In this document: positions 2,504 through 51,733 of the stretch, in pieces | Layout: each line of letters starts with the position of its first letter | Numbering within the stretch: position 1 is the first letter of the stretch | Source: a virus | Direction: 5' to 3' (one strand) | Virus genome (UHGV): UHGV-0405561 | Length of the DNA stretch: 51,733 nucleotides | Program-made: the position numbers and the translations under genes | Notes under the pieces: model-generated | Database searches by the model: none | What the model was told of the DNA's origin: nothing | What the model saw: only the letters and a program-made list of their open reading frames with translations

Positions 2504-2510
2504 GGTCACT

Positions 2511-3158: not shown

Positions 3159-3160
3159 AC

Positions 3161-4072: not shown

Positions 4073-4082
4073 GGTGTTGCAT

Positions 4083-6808: not shown

Positions 6809-6827
6809 TGATATTAAGGAGGTAACT

Positions 6828-7457: not shown

Positions 7458-7504
7458 GCATGACCTATAGAGCTGGTCGCGCAAATTATCAACGTATAGA
7501 ATGC

Positions 7505-7521
7505 GAATTTTGTTCACGGTG
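7505..7521 (+). promoter_or_regulatory. late-operon motif, copy 3 (variant GAATTTTGTTCACGGTG)
   Basis: 55 nt upstream of the ATG at 7577. Half-site degenerate (GAAT) but TTGTTCACGGTG conserved. Confidence 0.5.
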
Positions 7522-7576
7522 GGTGACGCATGAGGTCACCCCTTCTATCCGCCGGGCGGCGTAGGCCGGGGGAGAT

Positions 7577-8443
7577 ATGGCACAGAGTTTCACGAAAAAG
7601 ACTATCGCCATCACCATCACCGTTTCTGGGGTGCAAAAACGCATCGAGGGGCTTGCCTGCAAATGCAGGGTGTCCAAACTCGGACTTCCTGACAAGAACA
7701 AGGCGTCCGTCTCTATCTGGGGGCTGTCGCTCGACGACATGACGGCGATGACTACGCTCTCTTACGGCCCGCTGAGGTATGCCTCGCGCAATCACATGAT
7801 CATCGAAGCCGGAGAGCAGGGTGGTGCGCTGTCACGGGTCTTTTCCGGAAACATCATGTCAGCTTGGGCGGACTTCAACAGCGCGCCGGACGTCGAAATG
7901 AAGTTTGAGGCTATGACGGGCGGATATGCCGCGCTGATCGCCCAGAGCCCGGTTGCGTCCTCCGGCACCGCGAAAGCGGCAGAGCTGTGTGGGCAGTTCG
8001 CCAAGGAGTGCGGGCTTTCGTTCGTCAACCAAGGCATCAATATATCGGTGGACAACTCCGTCTATTCCGGATCACCGCTCGAAAAGGCGCAGGCGGTCGC
8101 AAAGCAGGTAGGTGCCGATCTCATCATCGACGACGACAAGATGACGCTTCTTCCACGCGGTGAGACGCTGAAAGGCGGGAGCGTGGTGGTGCTCTCCCCC
8201 GAAACGGGAATGATCGGCTATCCCACCTTCACAAACAACGGCATCGCCGTAAAGTGTTTCTTCAACCCGTCAGCGCAGCGCGGGGGACAGGTGAAAATCT
8301 CTAGTATCGTGCCCAAATCCAGCGGAACTTGGCGCATCACCAAGGTCGATCACGATCTTTCGGCCTACGACCCCAAGGGTGGCCCTTGGGAAACCACGAT
8401 AGAGGCAACGCATGGCGCAGGATTCCTCGCGGGAAGTTTATAG
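7577..8443 (+). CDS. tail protein D-like (P2 gpD / Mu gpP family, baseplate hub)
   Basis: C-terminal TWRITKVDHDLSAYDPKGGPWETTIEA resembles the conserved W-ITRVEH-L...G-T motif at the end of P2 gpD. 288 aa. Confidence 0.55.
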   Translation: MAQSFTKKTIAITITVSGVQKRIEGLACKCRVSKLGLPDKNKASVSIWGLSLDDMTAMTTLSYGPLRYASRNHMIIEAGEQGGALSRVFSGNIMSAWADFNSAPDVEMKFEAMTGGYAALIAQSPVASSGTAKAAELCGQFAKECGLSFVNQGINISVDNSVYSGSPLEKAQAVAKQVGADLIIDDDKMTLLPRGETLKGGSVVVLSPETGMIGYPTFTNNGIAVKCFFNPSAQRGGQVKISSIVPKSSGTWRITKVDHDLSAYDPKGGPWETTIEATHGAGFLAGSL

Positions 8444-9143
8444 CGACGCAACGCTTGATACGCCTTCCTCTCCGTTCAACGTTCTGTCATTCTTGATGGA
8501 GAGTGTTCTCAATCAGCAGTTGAACACGGCCCTCCCCGTACGTGTGGACTCCTGCACGAAACCGGGGACGGGCGACGCAGCGGGGTATGTCTCAGCCACG
8601 CCGCTGATTTGCCAGCGCGGAGCCGACGGCAGGGCCCTCACCCCTGTGAGCATTCCGAAACTGCCGTTTTTCCGGCTCCAGTGTGGAAAGGCGGCGGTTG
8701 TCATCGACCCCCAACCGGGCGATGTGGGGCTTGCCGTATTCGCGCAGAAAGACTGTTCGACGTTGCAAGCCGGAAAGACGGAGCCCGAAGTTGCCGGGAG
8801 TTTCCGCCGCTTTGACATGAGTGACGGCTTTTATATCGGCGGCTTCCTCGGCGTGCCCCCGGAAACGTTTGTCCACCTCGACCCTGAGGAACAAACCGTC
8901 ACCGTGACCGGCCCCCAAACGGTGACGCTCAACGCCGACAAAAAAATCACGCTCAACGCCCCGCTGGTCGAAGTCACCGGGCGCATCGTCCAGACCGGCG
9001 AACGCGCGGAAGACGGCGGATCGTCCTTCACCGGCGGCTTTACGAATACCGGAGGCCGCATCACGTCCAACGGCATCGTCCTTGAAGAACATACGCACAC
9101 TGGCGTGGAGGCGGGGGACGACAGTACGGGAGAGCCCCAGTAA
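8412..9143 (+). CDS. baseplate spike protein (gpV / Mu gp45-like)
   Basis: N-terminal OB-like region (PVRVDSCTKPG...), beta-helical repeats (TVTVTGPQTVTLNADKKITLNAPLVEVTG) and a C-terminal EEHTHTGVE His-rich apex motif typical of gpV-type spikes. An alternative start at Met 8496 is possible. Confidence 0.6.
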   Translation: MAQDSSREVYSDATLDTPSSPFNVLSFLMESVLNQQLNTALPVRVDSCTKPGTGDAAGYVSATPLICQRGADGRALTPVSIPKLPFFRLQCGKAAVVIDPQPGDVGLAVFAQKDCSTLQAGKTEPEVAGSFRRFDMSDGFYIGGFLGVPPETFVHLDPEEQTVTVTGPQTVTLNADKKITLNAPLVEVTGRIVQTGERAEDGGSSFTGGFTNTGGRITSNGIVLEEHTHTGVEAGDDSTGEPQ

Positions 9144-9409: not shown

Positions 9410-10438
9410 TCAATCGCCTTCATGCGTGATTCCATGCGTGATGTCCTCAAAAATTCCCGCAGTTTCCCTGTCGACACCGAGGTCATGCAGATAGATTTCT
9501 GTGGTGCGAATGTTCATGTGTCCAAGCACCTTTTGCGCCCGGCGCGGGTCTTTGAGATGGGTAGCCATAAAGTGGCGCAGGCTGTGGGCCGTAAAGAACG
9601 GTATGCCCGCCTTCTCGCAAAGGCGCTTCATAAGATACTTGATGCGCGGCGTAGTGCGTGGGTAGGGGAGTCCCGTTCCGGGGGCTTCAAAAACAAACCG
9701 CTCATTTTCGCGTAAGGCATAGAGACGGAACAACACCCCGTACAGAGTTGGGCTCATGGCAATCGTGCGTGATTCTCGGTTTCCGCCCCGGCGTTTGCTT
9801 GTCCACAGCCGGACGGTCCTGTTTTCCAGATCAACATCTTCCCACGCCATTTCTCGGATTTCAGAGATGCGCCCCGCCGTGTGAAGAAGGCAGAACAGGA
9901 AATCCCGCTCGAACCCGGTAGCGCAGGACATGAGCTTTGCGACGTCATTTTTAGGCGGGATGTACTTTACTGTCTGTACAGTGGAGAAGGGCTCAGTCTG
10001 GCGCGCGATATTGACCGAAACGTATCCCTCTCGTGTAGCCCATGAGTAAAGCGCGGACAACTCAATGCGATATTTGTTCGCGGACTTCCCGCTCACGGCT
10101 TCCTTGGCTGTTTCGAGAAAGCCTTCCAGATCGTTTTTGGTGATGGTGGAGAATTCGGTTTTAGGGCCGATGAATCTGTTCAGCTTCCGGAGTACGCTTT
10201 TCTTATAGATAAGGGTGTTCTTCTTGCATCGTCCTTCGCGTTTTTGCAGATAAAGCGCCGTGACCTCATACAAGGCCAAGCGTCTGGGCATAGTCACGGA
10301 GTCCTTGGCGGTCGATTCCCATTTGAGCGCCTCCAGCTTTGTCAAGAATCCGCCCCGGTACGCGATTCTTTGCCCTCCCTCGAACACTTCCGCCGCGTAT
10401 CGCATACCATTCTTCGTCTTGTATTTCCTGATTGACAT
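9410..10438 (-). CDS. int: tyrosine recombinase / phage integrase
   Basis: C-terminal catalytic motifs AHSLRHFMATHL and HMNIRTTEIYLH (R-H-R-Y family). N-terminal arm-binding-like RKYKTKNGMRYAAEVFEGGQRIAYRGGFLTKLEA. Start chosen at MSIRKYK. Confidence 0.85.
   Translation of the reverse strand: MSIRKYKTKNGMRYAAEVFEGGQRIAYRGGFLTKLEALKWESTAKDSVTMPRRLALYEVTALYLQKREGRCKKNTLIYKKSVLRKLNRFIGPKTEFSTITKNDLEGFLETAKEAVSGKSANKYRIELSALYSWATREGYVSVNIARQTEPFSTVQTVKYIPPKNDVAKLMSCATGFERDFLFCLLHTAGRISEIREMAWEDVDLENRTVRLWTSKRRGGNRESRTIAMSPTLYGVLFRLYALRENERFVFEAPGTGLPYPRTTPRIKYLMKRLCEKAGIPFFTAHSLRHFMATHLKDPRRAQKVLGHMNIRTTEIYLHDLGVDRETAGIFEDITHGITHEGD
9422..9442. repeat. tandem ATGCGTGAT arm-type repeat (right copy, inside the integrase 3' end)
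   Basis: ATGCGTGATTCCATGCGTGAT. Confidence 0.5.
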
Positions 10439-11141: not shown

Positions 11142-11639
11142 TTAGCTATTCGGTTCGTACCGAGCTTCCTTATAGAAAATAATCCAGTGTGTTTTCAGGT
11201 TGGTTGTCGTGGTATGTCCCAAAAGAGGGCGTTGCGAAAAACAGGAAAGCACTTCGCGTAGGTTGATCTGTGTTTCGTTCCACTTGAAAATCAGCGTCCC
11301 TCCGGGCTTGAGGACGCGCCAGCATTCTGAAAAGCCTTTGGCCAGATCGGTGTGCCATGTCTCCCTTGTGAGTTTTCCGTATTTTTTTCCTTGCCACGAG
11401 CGTGGACCACATCTTTCAAGGTGTGGCGGATCAAAAATGACGAGATGGAATTTTTCATCGGCATGAGGCAGTGCTCTGAAATCGGCAACGGTATCAGGAG
11501 AAACTCTAAATACTCTGCCGTCGCAAAGTACATGCTCTTCATGTCGGATGTCGCTATACAGTACCAGAGGATTCTGCTTGTCGAAGTAGAACATGCGGCC
11601 ACCACAACATGGGTCCAGAACTTGAGGGAGGGTGCTCAT
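11142..11639 (-). CDS. DNA methyltransferase (N6-A/N4-C family, small phage type)
   Basis: DPCCGG (motif I-like) and VIFDPPH (DPPY/H motif IV). Confidence 0.65.
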   Translation of the reverse strand: MSTLPQVLDPCCGGRMFYFDKQNPLVLYSDIRHEEHVLCDGRVFRVSPDTVADFRALPHADEKFHLVIFDPPHLERCGPRSWQGKKYGKLTRETWHTDLAKGFSECWRVLKPGGTLIFKWNETQINLREVLSCFSQRPLLGHTTTTNLKTHWIIFYKEARYEPNS

Positions 11640-39169: not shown

Positions 39170-39298
39170 GGTGCCCCCTTTGTTATTTTGTACAAAAATA
39201 TGTACAAATAAGGTGGACGTCAAGAGTAAAAGGCGGCCATTCTAAAAATCCACCGCTGTTTCCCCCGCCTCGCTATGGGGCTTTCCTTTTGCCCATGC

Positions 39299-39315
39299 GA
39301 ACCTTGTTCATGGTG
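39299..39315 (+). promoter_or_regulatory. late-operon motif, copy 6 (variant GAACCTTGTTCATGGTG)
   Basis: 51 nt upstream of the ATG at 39367. Confidence 0.55.
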
Positions 39316-39366
39316 ATGGTATCCCGGTTTTTTTGCCATGATGACCAAAACAACGGAGGGACAGAT

Positions 39367-39780
39367 ATGGCCAGACCCAAAAAGAATACAGCCCCGGAAA
39401 CAGAGCAGGCGACGAAGACGGATACCGTGATGGTCGCCCTGAACCGGACGACCGGGATCACGTTCCCCATGCCCGACGGACGCAAGGTGCTCATCGAAGG
39501 CAACGCCGCCAGCCTGCGCGGAAAGGAAAAGGGCGTGCTGCCCGTGGGCGCGTTCGGGCTGACGCGGGTGAACGCCGACGATTGGGCGTACATCGAAAAG
39601 ACCTATGGCCCGCACATGGAAATCTTCAAATCCGGCCTCATCTTCGCGCAGGCGCGCAAGGCCGACGCCGTGGACGAGGCCGACGAAAGGGCGGAACTGC
39701 GCAACGGGCTGGAGCCCGTGGACGTGGAGAACGACCCCAAGGCGCAGACCGAACCGCTCCAGAGCAAGGCGGGGTTCTAA
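39367..39780 (+). CDS. hypothetical head-tail region protein
   Basis: 137 aa. First gene after motif copy 6. Confidence 0.45.
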   Translation: MARPKKNTAPETEQATKTDTVMVALNRTTGITFPMPDGRKVLIEGNAASLRGKEKGVLPVGAFGLTRVNADDWAYIEKTYGPHMEIFKSGLIFAQARKADAVDEADERAELRNGLEPVDVENDPKAQTEPLQSKAGF

Positions 39781-39783
39781 CCC

Positions 39784-40215
39784 GTGGCTGTTGTTGTCTT
39801 TGACCCGCAGGAGTTCCGGGAGGCCTATCCGCGCTTCGTCGATCCGAAGACCGGGCAGCCTCTTCTGACGGATGCCCAGCTTCGGCAGGCGTTCGACGTC
39901 GCCTGTCTGCTCTTGGACAACACGGACTCTTCCCCGGTTCCCTATGACCCGGTCCACGGCGTCATGATCCGCAAGACGCTCCTGTACCTCCTCGTCTGCC
40001 ACTTGGCGACGCTGGCCTTGTGGCCAGTGGGCCAGTCCGGGCCCGTGTCCTCCGCCACGGAGGGTTCGGTGTCTGCGAGCTTCTCCGTGCCCACGGCGAC
40101 GGGGAAGGCGTTCTACAACCAGACGCCGTGCGGACAGGCCTTCTGGCAGGCCGTCCAGCCCTACGTTGCGGGCGGACGCTACTACGCGGTCAGGCGCTAT
40201 CATCCGTGGGGGTAG
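39784..40215 (+). CDS. DUF4054-like head-tail protein
   Basis: GTG start. 143 aa, positional. Confidence 0.4.
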   Translation: MAVVVFDPQEFREAYPRFVDPKTGQPLLTDAQLRQAFDVACLLLDNTDSSPVPYDPVHGVMIRKTLLYLLVCHLATLALWPVGQSGPVSSATEGSVSASFSVPTATGKAFYNQTPCGQAFWQAVQPYVAGGRYYAVRRYHPWG

Positions 40216-40217
40216 GT

Positions 40218-40805
40218 ATGGCGAACGCGCATGTCCTTGGCGGCGGGAAGTGGAAGAAGGCGCTTGAAGCCGTCTCGAAACAGGCGGCGAGCCTCAAGGT
40301 CGGTGTGCTCGAAGGGGCGACGAGCGAAGACGGCGAGTCCGTGGCCACCTACGCCTTTTACAATGAGTTCGGGGCGACCGTGGAAGTGCCGGAGCGGACG
40401 CAGACGCTGTACTTCAAGCGGAACCGGGACGGAACCGTCGGGAACCGTTTCGTCAGGAAAGACAAAAGCGACTTCGCGCAGGACGTGGCCGTGGGCGGGC
40501 ATACGATCACCATTCCCGCCCGTCCCTTCATGCGTTCCACGGTGCAGGCGCAGAAAGACGCATGGGCGAAAGCCTTCGCCGATGCGTTTGTTGCGAAAGC
40601 CCACGAGCGGGATGCCGTCGTGCGCGGGCTCAACCTGCTCGGCAGGAAGATGCAGGACGACATCGTGGCGACCATCAAGTCGAACTTGGCCCCGGACAAT
40701 GCCGAATCGACCAAACGCCGCAAGAACGCCAAGGGCGCGGGCAAGGGAACGCTCATCGATAAGGGGCACCTCCTCAAATCCATCAGCTACGAGGTGGAGT
40801 CGTGA
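40218..40805 (+). CDS. HK97 gp10-like virion morphogenesis protein
   Basis: TITIPARPFMRST motif region and position. Confidence 0.5.
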   Translation: MANAHVLGGGKWKKALEAVSKQAASLKVGVLEGATSEDGESVATYAFYNEFGATVEVPERTQTLYFKRNRDGTVGNRFVRKDKSDFAQDVAVGGHTITIPARPFMRSTVQAQKDAWAKAFADAFVAKAHERDAVVRGLNLLGRKMQDDIVATIKSNLAPDNAESTKRRKNAKGAGKGTLIDKGHLLKSISYEVES

Positions 40806-41266
40806 TGTTCGGCCTTGATCTCCATGCCGTCGTGCGCGGAGCCGTCACCGCCGTCCATCCTGACGAGCGCGTCGTCCGCTATCGGTCAGTGGGGCAATCG
40901 AACGTGCGCGGGAAGATGGTTCCGGCCTACGCCGATCCAGAAACGCTGGATGCGCAGATACAGAGCGAGAAGGATGACGCCCTATACCACGCCGGCCGCG
41001 CCGACGAGAACAGCATTACCCGGACATTTTACCTATGCACCCCGGCGGACTTGGGGAGCCGTGTCGCGGGCATCGTCCGCCCTCTGGCGCGTAACGGGGA
41101 CATGTTTTTCCGTCCTCAGGACGGGACGTGGTGGCTGGTTGTCGCCGTGGTTGAGGACTTTTCCTCGGTGGGCTGGAGCCGGGTGCGCTGCACGTTGCAG
41201 GTGAACGGCCCAGAGGGTGTCGAGCCTCCCGGCGCGGGCGGCGGAACGGAAGAGGAGGGCGCATGA
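40802..41266 (+). CDS. head-tail joining protein (hypothetical)
   Basis: 154 aa, overlapping starts and stops. Confidence 0.4.
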   Translation: MMFGLDLHAVVRGAVTAVHPDERVVRYRSVGQSNVRGKMVPAYADPETLDAQIQSEKDDALYHAGRADENSITRTFYLCTPADLGSRVAGIVRPLARNGDMFFRPQDGTWWLVVAVVEDFSSVGWSRVRCTLQVNGPEGVEPPGAGGGTEEEGA

Positions 41267-41823
41267 GCCAGCCGCCTGCCTATACCCCGGTCGGCGCCGG
41301 TATGCCGGATATTCTCGATGCCTTCTACGGCTTCCTGAGCACATACCTTGTGCGTTACGTCCCGGCGGAAAACATCATCCGGGGCTGGGAAAATCGGTAC
41401 GCCCTTCCGTCAGGAACCAACGACTACATCATTTATACGCTGTCCGGGTCGTCGCGGGTGGGCACCAATGCCTTGTCCGAAGTGTCCGCTGACGGAACCA
41501 TGACTTTCTCCACGCTGTTCGAGGGGACGGTCCAGATCGATTTCTGTTCCGATACCGAAGCCTCCCGCCTTTGGGCAGCGTACTGCGACAGCCTGCTTCG
41601 GAGTCCCGTTGGCCCGGCCTTTTTCGCACCCTACGGTTTCTCGTCAACCTATACCGACAATCCCGTCAGCGTCGAATATGCGGACGGGTCAGACCAGTAC
41701 GTGAAGCGGACCACGCTCACCGTCCATGTCTGCTATACGCTCACATCCACGGTGGCTCTAGAGTACGCCGAGCGCGTACGGTTGAGCCGTCTGGAAAATG
41801 TAGACGCCCACCACAAACCCTAG
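41263..41823 (+). CDS. tail-completion/neck protein (hypothetical)
   Basis: 186 aa, immediately before the sheath gene. Confidence 0.4.
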   Translation: MSQPPAYTPVGAGMPDILDAFYGFLSTYLVRYVPAENIIRGWENRYALPSGTNDYIIYTLSGSSRVGTNALSEVSADGTMTFSTLFEGTVQIDFCSDTEASRLWAAYCDSLLRSPVGPAFFAPYGFSSTYTDNPVSVEYADGSDQYVKRTTLTVHVCYTLTSTVALEYAERVRLSRLENVDAHHKP

Positions 41824-41832
41824 AGGTCAGCA

Positions 41833-43347
41833 ATGCCCATTCCCGCATCGAATATCGTCAAGATCGAACCGCGCGTCATCGCGGCGGGCCGCGAAGAACT
41901 GGAGATGAACGGCCTGTACGTCACCGATGCCCCGCTCCCGCCCGTCGTCTATCCCGCCGCCGTGATGGAGTTTACGTCCGCCAACGCAGTTGGGGAGGCG
42001 CTGGGCAAGACGTCCGAAGAATACGTTTTCGCGCAGCACTATTTCAACGGATATGAAAGCAAGTTCGCCTCGCCCAAGGCCCTGTTCATCGCCCGCCACG
42101 CGCCTGAGGGCCTTGCCGCCTACACGCTCGGCGCGGCCAACGCAAATACGCTGGCCAAACTCAAGGCCATCACCGCTGGGACTATGGCCCTCACCATCGA
42201 CGGTGCCCCGGTCAGCGTTTCGGGCATCGACCTTTCCGGGGCCACGTCCTTCGCTGATGTCGCTGCGCTGGCGTCCGCTGACGCCTCCGACTGGACGCTG
42301 GCCTACGACGGCGCGGCGGGGCGCTTCATCCTGTCCACCAAGACGGTAGGAGCGGATGGCGAAGCCGTCGCCGCCGGATCGAACACGGATACTGAGGGCA
42401 ACCTCGCCTATGCGCTGGGGCTGATGCCCGTGCAGGGCGCGCTGGTGTCTGCCGGCACGGCAGCGGAAACCGTGGCCGAAGTGCTCGACCGCGTAGCCGA
42501 AACCACGCAGAACTGGGTGACATTCACGCACAGGGAAAAGGCGTCCTCCACGTTGGGAAGCGCCGCCGAAACGGTAGGCGAACAGCTTGCGGCGTGGGCC
42601 AATGCGCACTGGGGCACCCTCGCCGTCGTCCACGACGATACGGAAACCCTGATCACCGCACCTTCCGACGCCGACGTCATCGGGGCCATGTCCGTCAATG
42701 ACAATACGGCCTTCATCTACGGTACGACGGTATACGCCGCGTTCATCATGGGTACCGTCGCCTCCATCGACTGGAACCGCATCAACGGCACCATCACGCT
42801 GGCCTTCAAGCGCGGGGACGGCCTTGCCGCAACCGTGAACTCCGAAGGTTACGCCACCGTGCTGGAAGGCCGTAACGCAAATTTCTACGGGGCATATGCC
42901 ACCCGGAACGCGGACTTTGATTTCCTGTATCCCGGCAGGCTTCTGAACAGCGACTACGTGTTCATCGATCCGCTGGTCAACGCGATTTGGCTGAACAACG
43001 CGTTGCAGGTGTCGATCCTCAACGGGCTTACGCAATCGCCGCGCGTGCCCTACACCGAGGCGGGGTTCACCCGCATCCGCTCGTGGATGATGGACCCGGT
43101 CAACCGCGCCCTCACCAACGGGGCTATCGAGCCCGGCGTCATTCTGTCCGAATCCCAGAAGTCCGAACTCGCCGCCGAAGCCGGAACGGACATTTCCGAG
43201 GAACTGTACACACAGGGCTACTACATCCAGATTCTTGACCCCGGCGCGTCCGTCCGCGTGAACCGGGAAACCCCGTCCATTTCCCTCTGGTACACCTACG
43301 GCGGCGCGGTCCAGCGCATTACCGTCGCCAGCACCGCCGTTCTCTAG
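41833..43347 (+). CDS. tail sheath protein (DUF3383-like)
   Basis: 504 aa, followed by tube, chaperone and tape measure. Confidence 0.6.
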   Translation: MPIPASNIVKIEPRVIAAGREELEMNGLYVTDAPLPPVVYPAAVMEFTSANAVGEALGKTSEEYVFAQHYFNGYESKFASPKALFIARHAPEGLAAYTLGAANANTLAKLKAITAGTMALTIDGAPVSVSGIDLSGATSFADVAALASADASDWTLAYDGAAGRFILSTKTVGADGEAVAAGSNTDTEGNLAYALGLMPVQGALVSAGTAAETVAEVLDRVAETTQNWVTFTHREKASSTLGSAAETVGEQLAAWANAHWGTLAVVHDDTETLITAPSDADVIGAMSVNDNTAFIYGTTVYAAFIMGTVASIDWNRINGTITLAFKRGDGLAATVNSEGYATVLEGRNANFYGAYATRNADFDFLYPGRLLNSDYVFIDPLVNAIWLNNALQVSILNGLTQSPRVPYTEAGFTRIRSWMMDPVNRALTNGAIEPGVILSESQKSELAAEAGTDISEELYTQGYYIQILDPGASVRVNRETPSISLWYTYGGAVQRITVASTAVL

Positions 43348-43370
43348 CCGTCCTCCAAAGGAGCTTTTCC

Positions 43371-43817
43371 ATGTCGCAAGCCTACGATTTCGATATCACG
43401 TCAGCCAACGCCAGCGCCGTCCTGACGGTGGATTCCCTGTTTCCTTCGGGGATCGCGCTGCAAATGTTCGCCACGGATCAAGCCGTGGGGCAGGATTCCG
43501 TCGACATCACCGAAACCCGCATGGGCGTGGACGGGCGCATGGTCGCCGGGTTCACGCCGGTCATCTACCCCGTGACCGTCACCCTCGAAGCGGCCTCGCC
43601 GTCCGCCAAAAACCTTGGCACGGTCTGGCGGGCCATGAAGACGGTCCGGGGCATCTACGAATGCACCCTCGTCATCACCGTGCCGAGCATCGCCAAGGTC
43701 TACACGTGGTCGCGCGGGGTCATGAAAAGCGGCGTGCCGTTCCCCTCGATGAAAAAGGTTCTGGAACCGACCACGTGGGTCTTCCACTTTGAAAACATGG
43801 ACGTTGCGGGGGTGTGA
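43371..43817 (+). CDS. tail tube protein
   Basis: 148 aa between the sheath and the chaperone. Confidence 0.55.
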   Translation: MSQAYDFDITSANASAVLTVDSLFPSGIALQMFATDQAVGQDSVDITETRMGVDGRMVAGFTPVIYPVTVTLEAASPSAKNLGTVWRAMKTVRGIYECTLVITVPSIAKVYTWSRGVMKSGVPFPSMKKVLEPTTWVFHFENMDVAGV

Positions 43818-44269
43818 GCATGAGAAAGGAAACCGTCGTCACCATCGAGGACAGGGGCAATCCGCTCACCTTCACAATCCGGGAAATGCCCGCGACGAAG
43901 CTCGAACGCTGGATCATCCGGGCCATGCTGCTGCTTGCCGGTTCCGAAGGGCTGGAAGGTATTTCCGGTACAAGCGTCGAGAACGCCGGGAAGTACCTGT
44001 CCGAACACGGCCTCAAGGCGCTCGCCAACGTCGAGTACGAGAAGGCGCAGCCGCTCCTCGACGAGCTGCTCGCCTGCTGCGCGCGCACCGACGCGGGCGT
44101 CGAGCAACGCTGCACGCCCGACACCGTTGACGGCTACATCGAGGATGTGCGCACGCTCTTCAAGCTCCGCGTGGAGGCCGCGAAACTGAACTTCGGTTTT
44201 TTCGGCGCAAGCCCGTCCGACTCCCCCGCCGATCTGCATATCGGCAAGCCGCGCAAGCCAAAGGGCTAG
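43814..44269 (+). CDS. tail assembly chaperone (short form)
   Basis: 151 aa directly upstream of the tape measure. Ends ...KPRKPKG* with a slippery site. Confidence 0.6.
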   Translation: MSMRKETVVTIEDRGNPLTFTIREMPATKLERWIIRAMLLLAGSEGLEGISGTSVENAGKYLSEHGLKALANVEYEKAQPLLDELLACCARTDAGVEQRCTPDTVDGYIEDVRTLFKLRVEAAKLNFGFFGASPSDSPADLHIGKPRKPKG

Positions 44270-44457
44270 CGGACTTCGCCAATGTCGGCGGCCTGACGGG
44301 AAGCCTCATCGCCCGTCGGGTCGCCACCCTGCACGAGCTGGATACGGTCTACGGCTATGAAGACGCGCTCAACATGGCTGAGGTACTGCTGGTGACGGAC
44401 TACAACGAATGGATCATGCACAAACAGGCGGAAAAGCAATATGGCGACGGTCATTGA
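44260..44457 (+). CDS. -1 frameshift extension of the tail chaperone (long form)
   Basis: Canonical X_XXY_YYZ heptamer A_AAG_GGC at 44260-44266. The -1 frame continues LADFANVGGLTGSLIARRVATLHELDTVYGYEDALNMAEVLLVTDYNEW... to TGA at 44455-44457. Confidence 0.55.
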   Translation, partial: KGLADFANVGGLTGSLIARRVATLHELDTVYGYEDALNMAEVLLVTDYNEWIMHKQAEKQYGDGH

Positions 44458-46573
44458 TTCCCTGCTGATCACCATCGGCGTTGATCCCTCCGGCGTTCAG
44501 CAGGGGATACAAACCGTCGATCAGGCGCTCAAAACTATTGACTCGACGGTAAAGCAAACAGCCGGGACACTCACGGAAGGGCTGAAGCCGAACACGGATA
44601 CGTCGGGTTTGCAAAAGCTCGGCGCCGAGACGCAGCTTGCCGAATCCGCCCTGCGCGAAGCCGACGCCACCGCCCGGCGCGTCGGCGATTCCATGTCTCA
44701 GGCGTTGAAGAAACCCGGCGAAGCCATGCAGGGCACCGCTCGCCTCATCGAATCCGTAAAGGGCTTTCTCGGTGGATTCATTGCGCCGCTCGCCGGGGCC
44801 GTCGCCATCGGCGGCATGTTCGGCAATTTCATCTCGCAAGGGACGCAGCTCAGCGCGCTGTCGAGCAAGCTCGGACGCGACGTGCGCGACCTCGACGCAT
44901 GGGGCGCGGCGGTGGAGCAGGCGGGCGGCTCGGCGTCCGCGTTCCAGTCCACGCTGGACTCGTTCGACAAGGGGATGCGGGAGGCTGCCGTGTCCGGCGG
45001 GGGCGGCAACCTTGAAATGCTCTACCTGCTCGGCATTCGGGCGACCGATGCACGGGGCAAGCTCCGCAGCCTGACCGACATCCTGCCCGATCTCGCCAAG
45101 CGCATCGAAGGCATGAGCAATGCCCGCAGCCGAACCATCCTCGAAAAGATGGGGCTCGACGACGGCACGATCATGTTGCTCCAGAAGGGCGGCAAGGCCG
45201 TCGAAGACCTGATGCGCGACATGCGCGACTTCGCGTTCACGAAGCGGGATACCGATGCCGCGGATGCGTTCAGCGGGGCCATGTCCGGGCTCAAGCGTGC
45301 AGGGCAGAGCGTCGCCAATGTGCTGTTCCGCGAGCTCGTGCCGATTGTCGTGAAGTTATCCGGCGGCATGAAAGAGTTCTTCCGCGTGCTCGTTCAGCAT
45401 GAGCCGTTTGTCCTGTCGTTTTTCGCCGTGTTGACGGCGGCAAGCATGAAGTTCCTCTTGGCGTGGGCCGCAAATCCGGTTGTGCTTTCTATCCTCGCCA
45501 TCATCGCCGCGCTGGGTGCGCTGGCGCTGGTCATCGACGACCTGTACGCCTACACGCAGGGAGGCGGAGCGCGCTGGAAGGACTTTTGGGCGCAGTTCGG
45601 GACGGGGGAAGAGATTTCCCGCAAGCTGTCCGCCTCGTGGGAGGCTCTGAAAGCGATTGGGAAGGGAGTTTTCGAGGGGCTGAAGGAGTACGCGCGGGAC
45701 TTCCTCAAGCTCTTTGATTCCGCCGTTGGTTACGTCAGGCCTGTGCTCGACCTCGTCCTTGGCTTTGGTCAGAAAGGCAAACCGGAACTTGAAGGCATCG
45801 GGAAAGCTATAGCATCACTTATCGCTGGTTTTCTTGCGATCAAAGCCGCTATCGGGGTTTTCAGCGGCGTTATCGGTATCGTCACCAAGCTGGGTGGCGC
45901 GATTCAGATGGTCATTGGCGTAGTCAAGGCCCTGACGCTGGCGATGATGGCGAACCCCGTCATTGCCATCCTCACTGTTCTTATCGGCCTCACAATCCTA
46001 ATCGCCACGAACTGGGACACGATCAAGGCGAAGGTAATAGAATGGGGGCAGACCGCCGCGCAGTGGATCGACGAGGTAAAGGCGAAGGCGGGGAAGCTCT
46101 GGGACGACTTCAGGCAATCCATCCCGACATGGGAAGATGTAAAGGCAAAATTTGCCTCAATCGGAGACAGCTTGAAGAACTACTTCAAAAAGCTGTTTTC
46201 AGATATTTGGGAGAGTCTGCTTTCCGGCATGCCCGACTGGACAAAAAAGCTGCTCGGCCTTGATGCAGAGGCAAAATCCGAAAACAGTGAAAAGGGGCTG
46301 GAAGATGCAAATATGTACGCTGCGGGAGTGCCCGTTTCCGACTCTACGGTGTTCGCTCAATCCATGCCTTACAACCCCGAATGGAAACAGCTTGCTGCCT
46401 CTCAGGCCCTGAGCCGCATGGGTAACTCTTCAAGTACGGACATCAATTCGACCGTCAGCGTGAACACCATCAACATCACCGCACCCGACGGCGACGCGCA
46501 GGCGATTTCCGGGGCCTTGCAGGGCGGGCTGAACAACCTCATCCCGTCAATACAGTCGGGCACCATTCGTTAA
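44441..46573 (+). CDS. tail tape measure protein
   Basis: 710 aa, alpha-helical. Internal hydrophobic segments (AANPVVLSILAIIAALGALALVIDDL). Position after the chaperone frameshift pair. Confidence 0.85.
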   Translation: MATVIDSLLITIGVDPSGVQQGIQTVDQALKTIDSTVKQTAGTLTEGLKPNTDTSGLQKLGAETQLAESALREADATARRVGDSMSQALKKPGEAMQGTARLIESVKGFLGGFIAPLAGAVAIGGMFGNFISQGTQLSALSSKLGRDVRDLDAWGAAVEQAGGSASAFQSTLDSFDKGMREAAVSGGGGNLEMLYLLGIRATDARGKLRSLTDILPDLAKRIEGMSNARSRTILEKMGLDDGTIMLLQKGGKAVEDLMRDMRDFAFTKRDTDAADAFSGAMSGLKRAGQSVANVLFRELVPIVVKLSGGMKEFFRVLVQHEPFVLSFFAVLTAASMKFLLAWAANPVVLSILAIIAALGALALVIDDLYAYTQGGGARWKDFWAQFGTGEEISRKLSASWEALKAIGKGVFEGLKEYARDFLKLFDSAVGYVRPVLDLVLGFGQKGKPELEGIGKAIASLIAGFLAIKAAIGVFSGVIGIVTKLGGAIQMVIGVVKALTLAMMANPVIAILTVLIGLTILIATNWDTIKAKVIEWGQTAAQWIDEVKAKAGKLWDDFRQSIPTWEDVKAKFASIGDSLKNYFKKLFSDIWESLLSGMPDWTKKLLGLDAEAKSENSEKGLEDANMYAAGVPVSDSTVFAQSMPYNPEWKQLAASQALSRMGNSSSTDINSTVSVNTINITAPDGDAQAISGALQGGLNNLIPSIQSGTIR

Positions 46574-46593
46574 TTCCAAAATGGATAGGGAAA

Positions 46594-47109
46594 ATGGCAG
46601 TAGCAGCATCAACAACACAACATTGGGCGCTTATCAGCGACAAAGGGACCACCGCAGTCACTTTCGACTCAATGCTCAGCATCGACGTGAAGAATGAAAA
46701 CAAGCTCCTCTCCTCGCCGGTTGAAGAGTCGGGATTTGCGAGTTACAATAAAGTGTCAAGCCCGCTGGACATCTACGTCGAACTCGCCGCGTCAGCATCG
46801 GAGTCGGGCCACGCGGCGCTGCTGGCGGCGCTCGACAAACTTGCGTCCGGAACTGAGCTTGTATCGCTCGTCACGCCAGACAAAGAATACCGCTTCCTCA
46901 ACATCGAAAGCTATTCGACGAAGCGCACGGCGACGGAAGGGGCCACGCTGCTTGTCGCGGAACTGCATTTGCTGGAAGTGCGGCAGGTCAAGGTACGAGT
47001 ATCACAAGCCGCGATACGAAGCCCGAAACGCCCGACATCGGCGTCGAAAGTTGATCGGGGGCTGGTACAGGCGCAGCCATATAATTCAACCATGTTCAGT
47101 ATCAAATAG
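46594..47109 (+). CDS. tail protein (gpU/DNA-circularisation-N-like position)
   Basis: 171 aa after the tape measure. Contains the near-protospacer of spacer 4 (46982-47013). Confidence 0.45.
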   Translation: MAVAASTTQHWALISDKGTTAVTFDSMLSIDVKNENKLLSSPVEESGFASYNKVSSPLDIYVELAASASESGHAALLAALDKLASGTELVSLVTPDKEYRFLNIESYSTKRTATEGATLLVAELHLLEVRQVKVRVSQAAIRSPKRPTSASKVDRGLVQAQPYNSTMFSIK

Positions 47110-47123
47110 AGTGGGGAGTTACT

Positions 47124-47444
47124 ATGCAGGTAATTCCGCTTTTAGCTATTCCATCTAGTACGTTTCAGGTTATACTTGATGACCAGCAATGCCGTATTTC
47201 GCTCTACCAGCGCGGGCGGCGCATATACCTTGATCTTGATGTAGACAACGAACCGGTATGCCGGGGGGCGATATGTCAGAACCGGGCGTCTGTCGTTCAG
47301 TCGCCCACGCGGTTGTTCAGCGGCACGCTGCACTTCTGGGACACGCTCGGAGACGAGCCGCCGCGATATGATTTACTCGGCACGCGGTTCCTGCTGCTGT
47401 ACGTCGCGGACGGCGAAGAGTTGCCGGATGCGTTGAGGTTTTAG
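47124..47444 (+). CDS. hypothetical tail protein
   Basis: 106 aa, RBS GGGGAG. Confidence 0.4.
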   Translation: MQVIPLLAIPSSTFQVILDDQQCRISLYQRGRRIYLDLDVDNEPVCRGAICQNRASVVQSPTRLFSGTLHFWDTLGDEPPRYDLLGTRFLLLYVADGEELPDALRF

Positions 47445-47517
47445 TGAGCGTAGACAGGGGCGGGGAGAAGCGTTAGAGGAGGGGCGTGGGGCACGCCTCC
47501 CAAAAGGAGGCAACCCC

Positions 47518-47601
47518 ATGAAGCAATTCCTCCGGGACGTTGCGGCGCTTGCGCTTGCTGACGTCATAGCGGCTGTGGTGGTTCACTTGCTGAACCTCTA
47601 A
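47518..47601 (+). CDS. 27-aa hydrophobic peptide
   Basis: Strong SD AAAAGGAGG 7 nt before the ATG. MKQFLRDVAALALADVIAAVVVHLLNL. Followed by the perfect hairpin gccccgtaggaattgccgttcctacggggc at 47611-47640. Confidence 0.3.
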   Translation: MKQFLRDVAALALADVIAAVVVHLLNL

Positions 47602-47892
47602 AAGCAGTTGCCCCGTAGGAATTGCCGTTCCTACGGGGCGCTAAAACTGGATTCTCGAAATCCGGGGGACGTGCCCCACGGGGCGGTGGGTGTTGACGCA
47701 CTCGCAGCCCTTCCTTTTTCAATAGCCATTCACGGGGTTGCGGTCAAGCCCACTCTTCCGGGTTCACAAAAAAGTTGTCTGGAAAAATCTTTTGGAATAA
47801 GGTAGTTGGAAAGTGGACCCCAAAACGAAGGTTTTGGCGGGGAAGTTGATGCAACATCCTGAAAACAAAGGAGGGAGTATCAAAAATCTCTG

Positions 47893-48160
47893 GTTGTCCG
47901 CCGTGTAGGCGGTTTAGAAGTGAGAAACGGCCTGCTGCTTTGCGCCGTAGTTGTTGTCCGCCGTGTAGGCGGTTTAGAAGTAAAGCAAACCCTGAGACCT
48001 TTCCTTTAAAAAGTTGTCCGCCGTGTAGGCGGTTTAGAAGTATGTCACAGTCTCTCTGCTTCAACGATTTCAGTTGTCCGCCGTGTAGGCGGTTTAGAAG
48101 GGCAGGTCAAAGTACGAGTATCGCAAGCTGCGGTTGTCCGCCGTGTAGGCGGTTTAAGAA
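47893..48160 (+). CRISPR. orphan CRISPR mini-array, type I-F-like repeats (5 repeats, 4 spacers)
   Basis: Repeat GTTGTCCGCCGTGTAGGCGGTTTAGAAG (28 bp) at 47893, 47953, 48013, 48073 and 48133. The last repeat is degenerate (...TTTAAGAA). Spacers are 32 bp each. The 5-bp stem and 5-nt loop match the I-F repeat GTTCACTGCCGTATAGGCAGCTAAGAAA. No cas genes in the window. Confidence 0.9.
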
Positions 48161-48186
48161 AGCCCCGCATAATGCAGGGCCTTTCT

Positions 48187-49041
48187 TCATTCTACGACTT
48201 CGCAGTCTTCGATAACAAGATTCCCCAACGCGAACCCTGAAACCTTTCCTTTGAAGATGACATTCTGCCTCTTCTTGAGCTTGGCGGCGGGGTGCTGGAG
48301 TTTCGGGGGCTTCTTGCCGTCGAGTTTATCTGATAATTGCAGCAGCTTCGAGCGGTTGTCTTCCGGCCCTTTGAGGACACACAAGACATTCGACATATCA
48401 CCGATGGGAAAAACAGCCTGATAATCGCCGCTCATGTTTTTCTCGATCTTGGCTATCTTGCCCCCGATCGAGATAGTGCGCCCGCCATACTCCTCATCCC
48501 CAGCCGCCTCATTTTCGTTGTAGGTATTCCAGATTTTGGCGGGAGAGACGGCTGTTTTGGTGTAATACCAATAGTCACAATGATGTGAGGCCTCTTTTTT
48601 TTTCTGTAAAAATGTTTCGCCATCTTTGAAATCTTCTTTTTTTAGCAAAGAAACCATTTTTTGGCATTGCTCATAGAAAGAAGCGTAATCTTCCAGTAGC
48701 ATATATGCGTCTGCTGAAAAACCATAGCCTCTAGGTGCTTCAGGTACTGTATTTATTGCAGCCTGAGCTTCCGCGAGTGCTTCTTTCCCTTTACCTTCAT
48801 AAAAGAAAGCATGTGACTTTGCTCCATGTGCTTCATGGATAATTTCTTTTGTCGAAGAATTTTCTTGTAATGCCTTATCCGCCAGTGTATGAACCTGCTT
48901 GGCTGTCATTTTTTTTTCGTCCAAGGCACTCCATGCGTCTTTCAACTCATCCACCGTCACGGCAAACACGGGCTGTGCGAGGCCAAGGGCCAGCAGGGCG
49001 GCCAGCAAAGGAAATTTTTTCATAGTCCCCCCCATCGCCAT
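48187..49041 (-). CDS. secreted/periplasmic protein of unknown function
   Basis: Sec signal MKKFPLLAALLALGLAQPVFA|VT. 284 aa. The 3' end carries the near-protospacer of spacer 2. Confidence 0.55.
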   Translation of the reverse strand: MAMGGTMKKFPLLAALLALGLAQPVFAVTVDELKDAWSALDEKKMTAKQVHTLADKALQENSSTKEIIHEAHGAKSHAFFYEGKGKEALAEAQAAINTVPEAPRGYGFSADAYMLLEDYASFYEQCQKMVSLLKKEDFKDGETFLQKKKEASHHCDYWYYTKTAVSPAKIWNTYNENEAAGDEEYGGRTISIGGKIAKIEKNMSGDYQAVFPIGDMSNVLCVLKGPEDNRSKLLQLSDKLDGKKPPKLQHPAAKLKKRQNVIFKGKVSGFALGNLVIEDCEVVE

Positions 49042-49044
49042 CCG

Positions 49045-50160
49045 TTACGCTTCATCCGGCTGTTTTTTCAGAGCATCATACCCCAGAGCCGTCGCCCGAA
49101 TCGCCTCGGCGAACCGCAACATGTCGTCCAGCTTTTCAATAGGCTGTTTTTCGTCTTTCTTGCCGTCGTTGAAGAGGCCCACATACTTCTGCTTGCCGTT
49201 GAAATGGAGGCGGCAGAGAGGCTTGCGGTTATTGTCGTCAAGGAGAATGGCGCAATATTTCAAGGCGTCGCGGATGACGACACGTTCGGGGGCGACTGTA
49301 CCGATGAGCATGGACTTGACGAGATAGTATCCTTGCCACTCCTCTTCCGTCGTTACAATGCCGGGCTTGCCCTCATCGGCGCTATCCTCGGCGTTTTCCG
49401 ATGCTTCGGAAGGCTCCGGTGCGGGTTTAGGCGCTGCGGACAAGGCATTTTTAAGGCGGGCATTGATTTGTTCGTTGATGAACTGCTCAATGGCACGAGT
49501 GAGGATAGGCGTAAAGCGTTCTTTCACCGACTGGGTTATTTTGCCTTCATAAACCTGCGCGATGAAAAATTTGACGAATTCCTCGTCCGGTTCCGTAATC
49601 TGACGCGCCAAAACGCTTTTGAACTCACGGGTGTACTTAAGTTCGCTGGCGGCGCTCAAGGCTTCGTCAACGTCGAATTTATCTTTGCACAGCTTCCTGA
49701 TTTCAGGAACCAACGCTTCATCCATGCTCTCAAGGACAAAATCCATGTAGGGTTTGTTGTCCATGAGATTGGGGGCTTCGAGATCGGAGAAGAAACGATA
49801 TCGGTTGCCGTCGGTCAGAATGGCAACGCGGGCCGATGTGACATGGAAATACCGCTGGAGCTGCGTGCATTGACTGCATTCAAGGGGAGCGCCGTAGGGT
49901 TTGCACTCGAAAAGGACAATGGGCTGGCCGTCACGCATGATGGCGTAGTCGACCCGCTCGCCCTTCTTTTCGCCGATGTCGGCAGTGAACTCCGGCACGA
50001 CTTCCATAGGGTTGAATACGTCATAGCCGAGCAGGTGAATGAACGGCATGATCAGCGCGTTTTTCGTCGCTTCTTCGGTTTGCAGATTCTTGCCCTGATT
50101 CCGGCACTTTGAAGCCAAGGCCGTGAGCGCGTCCATGAAATCCATAGTTTCTCTCCCCAT
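49045..50160 (-). CDS. HsdR_N-like PD-(D/E)XK nuclease domain protein
   Basis: N-terminal ATKNALIMPFIHLLGYDV...VDYAIMRDGQPIVLFECKPYGAPL matches the type I restriction HsdR N-terminal/Mrr-like nuclease motif D...E-C-K. Confidence 0.55.
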   Translation of the reverse strand: MGRETMDFMDALTALASKCRNQGKNLQTEEATKNALIMPFIHLLGYDVFNPMEVVPEFTADIGEKKGERVDYAIMRDGQPIVLFECKPYGAPLECSQCTQLQRYFHVTSARVAILTDGNRYRFFSDLEAPNLMDNKPYMDFVLESMDEALVPEIRKLCKDKFDVDEALSAASELKYTREFKSVLARQITEPDEEFVKFFIAQVYEGKITQSVKERFTPILTRAIEQFINEQINARLKNALSAAPKPAPEPSEASENAEDSADEGKPGIVTTEEEWQGYYLVKSMLIGTVAPERVVIRDALKYCAILLDDNNRKPLCRLHFNGKQKYVGLFNDGKKDEKQPIEKLDDMLRFAEAIRATALGYDALKKQPDEA

Positions 50161-50519
50161 AGAGCGTTATAGACCGGTTTATAATGGATCATATCGTTGA
50201 GAAAATCCACCCCGAAAGAGGAGAGGGGGAGCGACTTTACATTTTTCCTATTTTGTGCTGTTCTTTATCCACGGTGCTCGTAACACCAAACTAGGCGGAC
50301 AACGCCACCCGACAGTATGGCTCTTTTTGTGCCTTTTTGCCAAAGTCAAGACTCTTTTTGGCTGTGGTTTTCTGCTATACTTGTATCTTCTTGATGCCGG
50401 GTGTCCCCGATATGTCCAAGGCTTCGGCCCAAAGGCGGGGAGCCGCTCCTAGTTGCGGTTACGAACACCCGGCATCGTCATTCGTAGGCGGTGCCAACAT
50501 CCAAAACTAGGAGTGGCAC

Positions 50520-51449
50520 ATGTCTCAGTCCCTTTGCTTCAACGAATTCACCTTCTCGCCAGTCATCCGCGACAATCAGCCTTGGTTCCGCTCTTCTGAA
50601 ATCGCCACCGTGTTAGGGTACGCCCGAGAGGATACCTTGAGTCGTCTTTACGACAGAAACGCTGATGAATTCTCGTCAGATATGACTCAAGTGGTTGAAA
50701 TCAGCGTAGACCGTCAGTTTGGCGCAGAAGGCCGAGCCCGCATCTTCAGCTTGCGCGGCTGCCACCTCCTCGCCATGTTCGCCCGGACTCCGGTGGCAAA
50801 GGCGTTCCGCAAGTGGGTGCTGGACGTCATCGAGCAGTACGGCGACAGGGTGCCCGTTGCCGAACCCGTGACGCTCAACGACGAGCTGATCAGCGCGTCG
50901 GAACGGGCGGAGCTCAAGCTCATCGTAGACGCCAAGCTCTCGACATACCCCGCCGCTGTGCAGGGCAAGGCCCGCGCCGAAATCTGGGCGAAGTTCAACC
51001 GCCACTTTAGGATTGCAGAATACAAGCAGCTCCCGGCCCGGCTTATGCCCGAGGCCCGCGAGTTCCTGCTTTCTGTCCGCGTCCGCGCCATCAGCGCCAT
51101 ACCCACGGCGGAATCGTCAATCCCGGATCCGGCGCTTCCCGTCGCATCACCAGCATACCGTGAGCGCATCGCGGCTCTCGACCGTCTCGAAGAGGAATGG
51201 ATCGAATTCGCGGGGGAAACCCGCTCCCGGCTGCACCAATTCGTCAACGAGCTCCTGCGCGTCAAGGGGAGCACCTATCCCGAACTGTTGAACCGGGTAT
51301 GTCCCCGGCAGAACATCTCGAAGGACCCGCTCCTCGGCATCCTGCAATCCAACTCGTACAATGCCCAAACATGGATTGACGCGGGAATCTCGGAAATGAG
51401 AACGGCCATCCGTGCCGCGAAGACCGCGAACAGGTTGATGCTAGGGTAA
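50520..51449 (+). CDS. Bro-N domain antirepressor-like protein
   Basis: MSQSLCFNEFTFSPVIRDNQPWFRSSEIATVLGY...LSRL is a Bro-N N-terminal domain. The first 32 nt are the near-protospacer of spacer 3. Confidence 0.7.
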   Translation: MSQSLCFNEFTFSPVIRDNQPWFRSSEIATVLGYAREDTLSRLYDRNADEFSSDMTQVVEISVDRQFGAEGRARIFSLRGCHLLAMFARTPVAKAFRKWVLDVIEQYGDRVPVAEPVTLNDELISASERAELKLIVDAKLSTYPAAVQGKARAEIWAKFNRHFRIAEYKQLPARLMPEAREFLLSVRVRAISAIPTAESSIPDPALPVASPAYRERIAALDRLEEEWIEFAGETRSRLHQFVNELLRVKGSTYPELLNRVCPRQNISKDPLLGILQSNSYNAQTWIDAGISEMRTAIRAAKTANRLMLG

Positions 51450-51504
51450 TCCTTGGCAAGCCTACATGAATCATATAAGATTTTACCAACGGAGGGATTC
51501 CCCC

Positions 51505-51733
51505 ATGTTGTTGTTCGATACCGGAAAAAAGCTGGAAAAAGCGTTTACCGCCGAGCAGTTCGACGCCCTTGTCGAGGTGCTCGAAAAGCGTGAGGATAAG
51601 GCCGCGACCAAGGAAGACCTGCGCGAAACCGAGTTGCGGTTGCAGGTTGAACTGGAGAAGGTCCGCGGAGAAACGGAAAAGGTTCGTTCCGAGACGGAAA
51701 AGGTTCGTTCCGAAATGAAGGAAACCGAAGCTC
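51505..51733 (+). CDS. DUF1640-like coiled-coil protein, 3'-truncated at the window edge
   Basis: MLLFDTGKKLEKAFTAEQFDALVEVLEKRED...EKVRGETEKVRSETEKVR. Paralogue of the ORF at 3-209. Confidence 0.55.
   Translation, partial: MLLFDTGKKLEKAFTAEQFDALVEVLEKREDKAATKEDLRETELRLQVELEKVRGETEKVRSETEKVRSEMKETEA

Follow-up and report, generated by a model that had tools for sequence, protein, structure and literature searches.

Why would a phage carry a CRISPR array whose spacers nearly match the phage's own genes? This question is raised by UHGV virus genome UHGV-0405561, a stretch of 51,733 nucleotides that we analyzed at its full length (hereafter, the window). Located on the plus strand at 47893-48160, the array consists of five repeats of 28 nt and four spacers of 32 nt, and no homologs of the host's I-F CRISPR-associated (cas) genes accompany it. 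The reading that we hold to be highly probable is that of a temperate Bilophila phage with a cas-less type I-F array, which would be powered by the host, would be directed at related phages, and would leave its carrier unharmed.

Spacer matches in the carrier and in related phages

All four spacers read on the plus strand, and are S1 (47921..47952; leader-proximal and newest), S2 (47981..48012), S3 (48041..48072), and S4 (48101..48132; at the trailer end and oldest). An earlier sequence-only reading of the window had reported near-matches of three of these to the phage's own genes, and our both-strand scan of the full window returned the same three, all on the plus strand and with an identical set of 14 mismatch coordinates. 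For S4, this is a 29/32 match at 46982..47013 in the Dit-like tail gene (46594-47109; Pfam Dit_like), with mismatches at spacer positions 11, 23, and 29 and a 5′ GC. For S2, it is a 26/32 match at 48226..48257, within the 3′ end of the OB-fold gene (48187-49041, minus strand; tRNA_anti-like/Sie-like) and on its antisense strand, with mismatches at positions 1, 4, 7, 16, 28, and 31 and the previously reported 5′ CC in place at 48224-25. For S3, it is a 27/32 match at 50519..50550, which begins one base ahead of the ATG of the Bro-N gene (50520-51449; Bro-N/anti-repressor family matches) and takes in its first 10 codons and one further base, with mismatches at positions 1, 7, 13, 16, and 28 and a 5′ flank of CA. 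By comparison, 100 shuffled windows gave no S4 match with three or fewer mismatches.

That reading had also placed all 14 mismatches at wobble positions. This holds for the 13 coding mismatches, each of which falls at a third codon position (hypergeometric P = 1e-7), but not for the fourteenth (50519), which is the base before the ATG and so is in phase without being a wobble base. Twelve of the coding mismatches leave the amino acid unchanged, the other being a Glu-to-Asp change (50546). Since 51-61% of the differences between the carrier and a relative in the same genes are at third positions, the 13/13 count indicates that the protospacers lie within protein-conserved stretches of diverged homologs. 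Moreover, the earlier reading had dealt with S2, S3, and S4, but S1 belongs with them as well, its target being an allele of the tape-measure gene (44441-46573 in the window). While S1 has no self match above 21/32, the carrier site homologous to its protospacer (46373..46404, minus strand, within the tape-measure gene) retains the CC and matches at 19/32, this allele being diverged at all codon positions.

To locate protospacers in relatives, we searched for the four spacers in DNA surrounding homologs of the Bro-N, Dit, and OB-fold proteins, and closer protospacers were found for each of them. An integrated prophage of the L047 type (L047-52, L054, L056, and L070; contigs up to 415 kb) matches S1 at 32/32 with a 5′ CC, S4 at 32/32 with GC, S2 at 30/32 with CC, and S3 at 28/32, of which the S2 and S3 matches are present also in L053 and L055. 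Both L081 and L082 hold S1 (32/32 with CC) and S4 (32/32 with GC). Additional S4 matches, all with CC, are found in the L057 type (31/32; L057 and L059-61, with S1 at 30/32 with CC in L057 only), the L031 type (30/32; L031-40), and L066 (30/32). At the Bro-N gene starts of L004-15, S3 matches at 31/32, the sole difference being position 1 and the flank being CA. In ten sibling contigs (L071-80), which are described below, S1 matches at 31/32 and S2 at 29/32, both with CC. In the L047-type loci and L081-82, the S1 protospacer is at the tape-measure 3′ end, on the antisense strand. On these alignments, the spacers derive from related phages and not from the carrier, in agreement with the diverged homologous phage that had been proposed as their source.

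The converse origin, in which the spacers were acquired from the carrier genome and their sites later escaped through synonymous mutations, would account for the silent mismatches and for the PAM (protospacer-adjacent motif) loss at the S4 site, both being expected for escape under purifying selection. However, there are exact 32/32 protospacers in other phage lineages, and the 3-6 changes per site go far beyond what escape needs. Furthermore, it is the whole surrounding block of 5-6 kb that is 12-28% diverged, not the protospacers alone, and the S1 self site differs at 13/32, first and second codon positions included. Because relatives hold exact or closer protospacers, we rule out a self-derived origin, leaving it only the faintest probability.

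Among the wider searches, exact queries of IMG/VR with S4, S1, and 31-mers of S3 and S2 returned nothing, and a protein-guided scan of the same database gave one distant relative (L003), which is without an array. In the JGI metagenomes, the exact S3 32-mer was absent, and a degenerate S2 pattern revealed just one further L047-type contig (L070). As for spacers directed at the window, none of the 107 that we collected from host arrays matched it at 28/32 or better.

With regard to the carrier, its homologous sites differ from the spacers by 3-13 bases. The S4 self site has an intact seed and no PAM (GC in place of CC), the S2 self site keeps the CC and has seed mismatches at positions 1, 4, and 7, and the S3 self site has no PAM (CA) and seed mismatches at positions 1 and 7. 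It is well established for type I-F that PAM and seed defects block interference. Because the PAM is missing or the seed is mismatched at each self site, the carrier should, going by sequence, be spared by its own array, which sustains what had been proposed earlier. We also considered a regulatory role for the near-self matches, exerted on genes of the phage itself, and regard this as unlikely for sites that each lack a PAM or a seed match.

Array structure and type I-F assignment

The repeat unit is the 28-nt GTTGTCCGCCGTGTAGGCGGTTTAGAAG, with copies that begin at 47893, 47953, 48013, and 48073 in a 60-bp period, followed by a degenerate terminal copy that begins at 48133. In its predicted fold, a 5-bp stem closes a 5-nt loop and leaves a 3′ handle of 8 nt, in the register of a canonical I-F repeat. 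The assignment of the array as type I-F-like is based on this fold and on the identity of the repeat to a host array. Specifically, GTTGTCCGCCGTGTAGGCGGTTTAGAAG is identical at 28/28 positions to an array at L029 5425-5572, which is beside Cas3f in B. wadsworthia ATCC 49260, and has one difference from the main arrays of this strain. A repeat scan with one genome per species gave 15 loci, mostly from Bilophila and its relatives.

Preceding the array is a leader of ~140 nt (47753..47892, plus strand) that resembles the leaders of Bilophila type I-F arrays. It is 81% identical to that of L028 over 132 nt, 81% to that of L008, 76% to that of L017, and 87.5% over 48 nt to the cas-adjacent L029/L018 leaders. 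The blocks shared with the leaders of Bilophila arrays include TTCAyAAAAAAGTTGTC, AATAAGGTAGTT, and AAAACGAAG.

In B. wadsworthia ATCC 49260, the arrays adjoin I-F cas genes, whose products include Cas1f (397 bits), Csy3 (240 bits), and Cas3f with an I-F Cas2 domain (753 bits), all above cut-off, as well as a Csy2 that is recognized by Pfam. A candidate Csy1 in this strain has no family match. When the six host I-F Cas proteins were compared with the phage by tblastn, in a search confined to this cas type, nothing was found below E = 0.05. Since the repeat matches, the leader is host-homologous, and no I-F cas homolog was found, the array appears to be cas-less and yet to be equipped with every cis element that the host's I-F system uses.

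Given these features, the array could be viewed as an RNA anti-CRISPR decoy, whose transcribed repeats would sequester Cas6f and Cas7f and thereby lower the I-F immunity of the host against the phage. There is precedent for this in the prophage-encoded I-F repeat mimics (Racr, solitary repeat units) that inhibit I-F systems (PMC10651486), and the repeat hairpin here is intact in its predicted fold. However, Racrs are solitary and without functional spacers, whereas the present locus combines five regular repeats with a host-like leader, PAM-flanked exact targets, and turnover at the leader end. As a rival account, we find the decoy very unlikely, though a role of this kind is compatible with an array directed at related phages and does not exclude it.

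Separately, we observed that the spacer TTGACCGAATTGAGCAGCGGCATCCGAAATGC is present twice in B. wadsworthia ATCC 49260, at L021 (reverse 2948-2979) and at L022 (5485-5516). One copy is in a cas-adjacent array and the other, on a different scaffold, in an array of four repeats with a DUF1351 phage gene close by, which suggests spacer exchange or parallel acquisition between arrays.

Insertion site and sibling cassettes

The left neighbor of the cassette is a baseplate plug gene of the Pam3_gp18 family (gp18; 47124..47444, plus strand), and on its right is the convergent OB-fold gene. In array-less relatives, the stops of these two genes are 40 bp apart. Because window homology to array-less relatives (L031-39) stops at 47750 and resumes at 48156-59, the insert can be delimited as leader plus array, or ~405 bp. 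After the last repeat is a hairpin (48156..48187; no strand assigned) that is common to the array and the convergent gene, with a predicted fold of −24.3 kcal/mol for 60 nt (z −4.1). In L071, the sequence of the stem differs, yet the segment still reads as an inverted repeat. We consider this hairpin a likely bidirectional terminator. Rfam and tRNA scans were both empty.

The ten sibling contigs, which come from different samples, have the same cassette between the same two genes (for example, L071 5767-5974, reverse). Their leader is identical at 135/140 positions (96%) and the terminal degenerate repeat is the same, while no spacer is common to these arrays and the window array. One, two, or three spacers are present, with the trailer-end spacer A common to all. 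Beyond A, three arrays add B, two add C instead, and one has D on B (A; B+A; C+A; D+B+A), a nested leader-end series that reads as the pattern of ordinary CRISPR adaptation. Spacer D matches the tape-measure gene of the L047-type prophage at 32/32 with CC, spacer B reaches up to 28/32 in the tape-measure genes of other relatives, and none of the fetched loci contains a match to spacer A or C. Since S1 of the window has its 31/32 match with CC in the siblings, and the sibling spacers match the window at 27/32 at best, the targeting looks one-directional in this sample.

The sibling cassettes bear on whether the array is a passive relic, meaning a piece of a host array captured once together with its leader, the spacers of which record host immunity and have no phage function. 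Such a relic would be expected to have the host-like repeat and leader that we see, the spacer found in two ATCC 49260 arrays shows that spacers or blocks can move, and a recombinational route for phage mini-arrays has been proposed by earlier surveys (PMC7099407). Yet at least two diverged lineages retain the cassette at one and the same site, where the leader is 96% identical and the spacers are wholly different, and the gains at the leader end are nested. Moreover, had a host block been captured, some of its spacers should be directed at the carrier, whereas every carrier site is mismatched or PAM-less. Altogether, we judge a relic to be improbable.

Three further sets of arrays were noticed among the relatives. 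The L041 contig ends (9772-10149) in sequence that is 88% identical to window 47481-47851, leader part included, and probably also carries an array that broke its assembly. In L017 (uncultured Bilophila MGYG-HGUT-01277), a 4-spacer array at 2497-2764 adjoins the gene for a Rha phage regulator. Spacer 3 of this array matches at 27/32 (flank CA) in an open reading frame (ORF) 2.8 kb away in the same locus and at 30/32 with CC in the L026 homolog, thus showing the same near-self, better-in-relative pattern as the window array. Variant-repeat arrays (ATTATCCGCCGTGTAGGCGGCTTAGAAG) are found in the Bro-N type P0003 phages L007 (1134-1221) and L008 (1428-1734) at another site, between the Bro-N gene and a 93-aa gene, and one L008 spacer has a 32/32 match in the related contig L006, the flank being GA.

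Genome completeness

CRISPR repeats often break or misjoin short-read assemblies, and two contigs from other samples (L064 and L065) stop at 47532 and 47643, so that an assembly chimera, with a bacterial-chromosome array misjoined to a phage, has to be considered. Set against this, both flanks are phage genes that are adjacent to each other in relatives, the same cassette is between the same genes in ten independent assemblies from other samples, and the contig closes on itself. A chimera is therefore barely credible.

As for this closure, the ENA contig ERZ807510 NODE_8 (51,764 bp, coverage 54) includes the whole window, and its last 31 bases, which are past the window end, exactly repeat the first 31 of the window. 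In addition, a 138-aa coiled-coil protein of the relative L067 runs unbroken over the junction of the window ends. Because of the terminal overlap and the junction-spanning protein, we take the window to be a single phage genome, circular and complete at 51,733 bp. The sequence-only reading had assumed a neighboring tandem prophage as one target of the array, which is not compatible with a single circular genome. Instead, the 86% similarity between the window start and end is accounted for by a coiled-coil membrane-protein gene (1-209 plus 51505-51733) that crosses the junction and has internal 21-bp (7-aa) repeats.

Target layout and local divergence

In the L047-type target (window orientation), the protospacers are at 8894-8925 for S1 (opposite strand), 9502-9533 for S4, 10040-10071 for S2, and 11228-11259 for S3, and together span 2,366 bp, a clustering with P = 4e-4 for random placement in 50 kb. 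Relative to that of S4, the oldest spacer, the protospacer of S1 is on the other strand, upstream, and those of S2 and S3 are on the same strand, downstream. Type I-F primed acquisition has two favored classes, which make up 43% and 30% of new protospacers, and both are 5′ on their own strand (PMC4117759). The S1 and S2/S3 positions with respect to S4 correspond to these two classes, and the strand layout would thus be consistent with priming, without being proof of it.

The carrier and the L047-type target are 95% identical over the tail genes at 39298-46276. In contrast, identity is 84-88%, or the sequences are unalignable, over the ~6 kb that runs from 46277 across the circular junction to 285 (46277-51733 plus 1-285), a block that contains the array and all four homologous sites. 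Selection for tight linkage of the array with immune alleles would also produce the observed clustering. It had been suggested earlier that conserved tail, Bro, and moron genes were chosen as exclusion targets, but the set of targets resembles a selection of conserved genes less than it does the outcome of spacers being taken from the 2.4 kb round the array site, or of linkage to this stretch.

Proposed mechanism

In the mechanism that we propose, the host is a Bilophila cell with a chromosomal I-F system, whose Cas6f would process the array transcript. The resulting CRISPR RNAs (crRNAs) would be loaded into the host Csy/Cascade complex, and Cas2-3 would then destroy incoming or co-resident related phages that have a matching protospacer and a CC PAM. 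We infer the expression of the array, the processing of its crRNAs, and the exclusion of siblings from the features described above. The array on the phage would itself take up new spacers, which the adaptation machinery of the host would add next to the leader, probably by primed adaptation, and this could be why the four targets are within 2.4 kb by the array site. In-place acquisition has support from the leader, the strand layout, and the nested sibling series. We go further only tentatively, in a proposal that we consider slightly more apt to be wrong than right. According to this, the array is a live adaptation site in a prophage, into which the host Cas1-Cas2/3 complex inserts spacers primed from superinfecting siblings, and is linked to ~6 kb of diverged and hence immune alleles (46277 to 285), with the two forming a co-inherited "weapon plus immunity" module that splits lineages.

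As regards the PAM, a 5′ CC is present for S1 (exact match), S2 (30/32), S4 in three haplotypes, spacer D (exact match), and L017 spacer 3, whereas the other flanks are GC for the exact S4 matches, CA, GT, or AT for S3, and GA for one L008 spacer. Closer protospacers with a 5′ CC are thus present for S1, S2, and S4 (31/32), and the CC is lacking for S3 and the exact S4 matches. This shortfall is the first of several points that weigh against a host-powered array directed at related phages. In any relative sampled, S3 lacks a CC PAM and is always mismatched at seed position 1, and a slipped or flipped PAM was looked for as well, but neither CC nor GG is close enough on the left or the right. 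The GC at the exact S4 matches could represent PAM escape in the targets or reflect unsampled haplotypes, and no single sampled phage is exact for all four spacers. On the plus strand of the leader, a sigma-70 consensus scan gave no promoter. With respect to the machinery, the Csy4-like protein of ATCC 49260 scores 34.5 bits against a curated cut-off of 36.25, and the presence of I-F cas genes in this phage's own host is deduced from other Bilophila genomes. As to in-place adaptation, recombination with host arrays could likewise deliver spacers.

Carrier genome and relatives

The carrier is, by its gene content, a tailed temperate phage, having genes for an integrase, terminase, portal, capsid, sheath, and tube, with the baseplate and tail fibers at 922-9143. 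Its tyrosine integrase (9410..10438, minus strand; Pfam Phage_integrase), which is indicative of a temperate lifestyle, comes directly after the tail spike gene (8412-9143). Located at 49045..50160 on the minus strand is an HSDR_N-domain endonuclease moron (phrog_4225, 2.4e-120) that is absent from the L047-type target. Homologs of the Bro-N, Dit, and OB-fold proteins are labeled Bilophila or Bilophila wadsworthia by their sources, and the host is Bilophila, a member of the Desulfovibrionaceae, rather than Desulfovibrio proper, as the earlier mention of Desulfovibrio-type relatives would have it. GenBank phages yielded no close relative, the matches being short and limited to the endonuclease and Bro genes.

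Several other features of these genomes were also observed. The OB-fold protein has a signal-peptide-like N terminus, and its N-terminal half is variable among relatives (64-71% identity), while the C terminus is nearly invariant; the gene caller of the source had called only the C-terminal 156 aa. In the tail-fiber region, the ORF at 5675-6808 contains many 9-bp Gly-rich tandem repeats (TRF 6242-6752). The terminase large subunit of L007 (11618-14098) is 826 aa long, not 491, with Hint/intein-splicing domains that indicate an intein. In L004, L006-L010, and L031-L037, the capsid-tail moron slots hold toxin-antitoxin pairs (Phd/YoeB and HicA/HicB), and Bro-N genes are found in several different slots of these relatives. 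Because of these pairs and the varied Bro-N slots, the moron islands are hot spots for accessory genes.

Implications

This locus is a concrete case of probable phage-phage CRISPR competition in the human-gut pathobiont Bilophila wadsworthia, in which carrier and targets can be named, along with the PAM context and the effector genes of the host. That the arrays of bacterial prophages can adapt in place, against which earlier surveys had argued, is suggested by a leader resembling that of the host, by the priming-like arrangement of the targets, and by the nested sibling gains. Should the live-adaptation proposal be true, it would overturn the view that bacterial-phage mini-arrays are without working leaders and gain spacers by recombination alone. 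From the jump in divergence round the array, such arrays may also shape phage mosaicism and the separation of lineages. As a practical matter, orphan arrays in Bilophila genomes should be checked for a prophage location before being read as records of host immunity.

Comparison with known systems

Vibrio phage ICP1 encodes a complete I-F system with its own cas genes, which targets a host defence island. As in ICP1, the Bilophila element is a type I-F array in a phage genome that would be to the benefit of the phage; unlike ICP1, with its own cas genes and host-island target, it has sibling-phage targets and no homolog of the host I-F cas genes, as judged by a tblastn search that covered I-F cas homologs only. 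The class of complete phage-encoded CRISPR-Cas systems is summarized in PMC11656645. The Racr elements are likewise a phage-borne host I-F repeat without cas genes (PMC10651486). A Racr, however, is a single repeat that poisons the Cas complex, whereas here there are five repeats and targeting spacers.

A closer likeness is to the virus-borne mini-CRISPR arrays, an established class of cas-less arrays with host-identical repeats and with spacers against closely related viruses (PMC6858448, PMC11656645, PMC7099407). Their targets frequently belong to genes next to the array, and the copy in the carrier is mismatched (PMC6858448, PMC11656645, PMC7099407), and the proposed role is heterotypic superinfection exclusion, which has been experimentally tested for SPV1 and SPV2 (PMC6858448). 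The phage and prophage mini-arrays of Faure et al. (2019), in so far as they are described in PMC6858448, PMC7099407, and PMC11656645, have host-identical repeats, no cas genes, and spacers that target adjacent genes of close relatives and not the carrier, in all of which the present array is similar. In PMC7099407, bacterial phage mini-arrays are reported to have 1-2 spacers and leaders unlike those of the host, and it is hence argued that their spacers arrive by recombination only. The present locus differs from the arrays so described in that its leader is host-like and its siblings show nested gains at the leader end.

The best-studied counterparts for comparison are the Saccharolobus portogloboviruses SPV1 and SPV2 (Medvedeva et al., 2019; PMC6858448), whose arrays, like this one, are cas-less and have host-like repeats and a leader. 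In both cases, the spacers match close relatives while the orthologous loci of the carrier are mismatched, and related viruses have arrays at the same position with different spacers, a sign of turnover (PMC6858448). The differences are that SPV1 and SPV2 are archaeal and have 1-2 spacers, whereas the present carrier is a bacterial tailed temperate phage with a type I-F array of four, and that the targeting seen here looks one-directional in our sample. The mini-array convention of 1-2 spacers is exceeded here, with four in the window and 1-3 in L071-80. Otherwise, a virus genome without I-F cas homologs, host-identical repeats, and spacers that match relatives and not the carrier are all found, and the Bilophila element thus fits the virus-borne mini-CRISPR arrays by every functional criterion that we tested.

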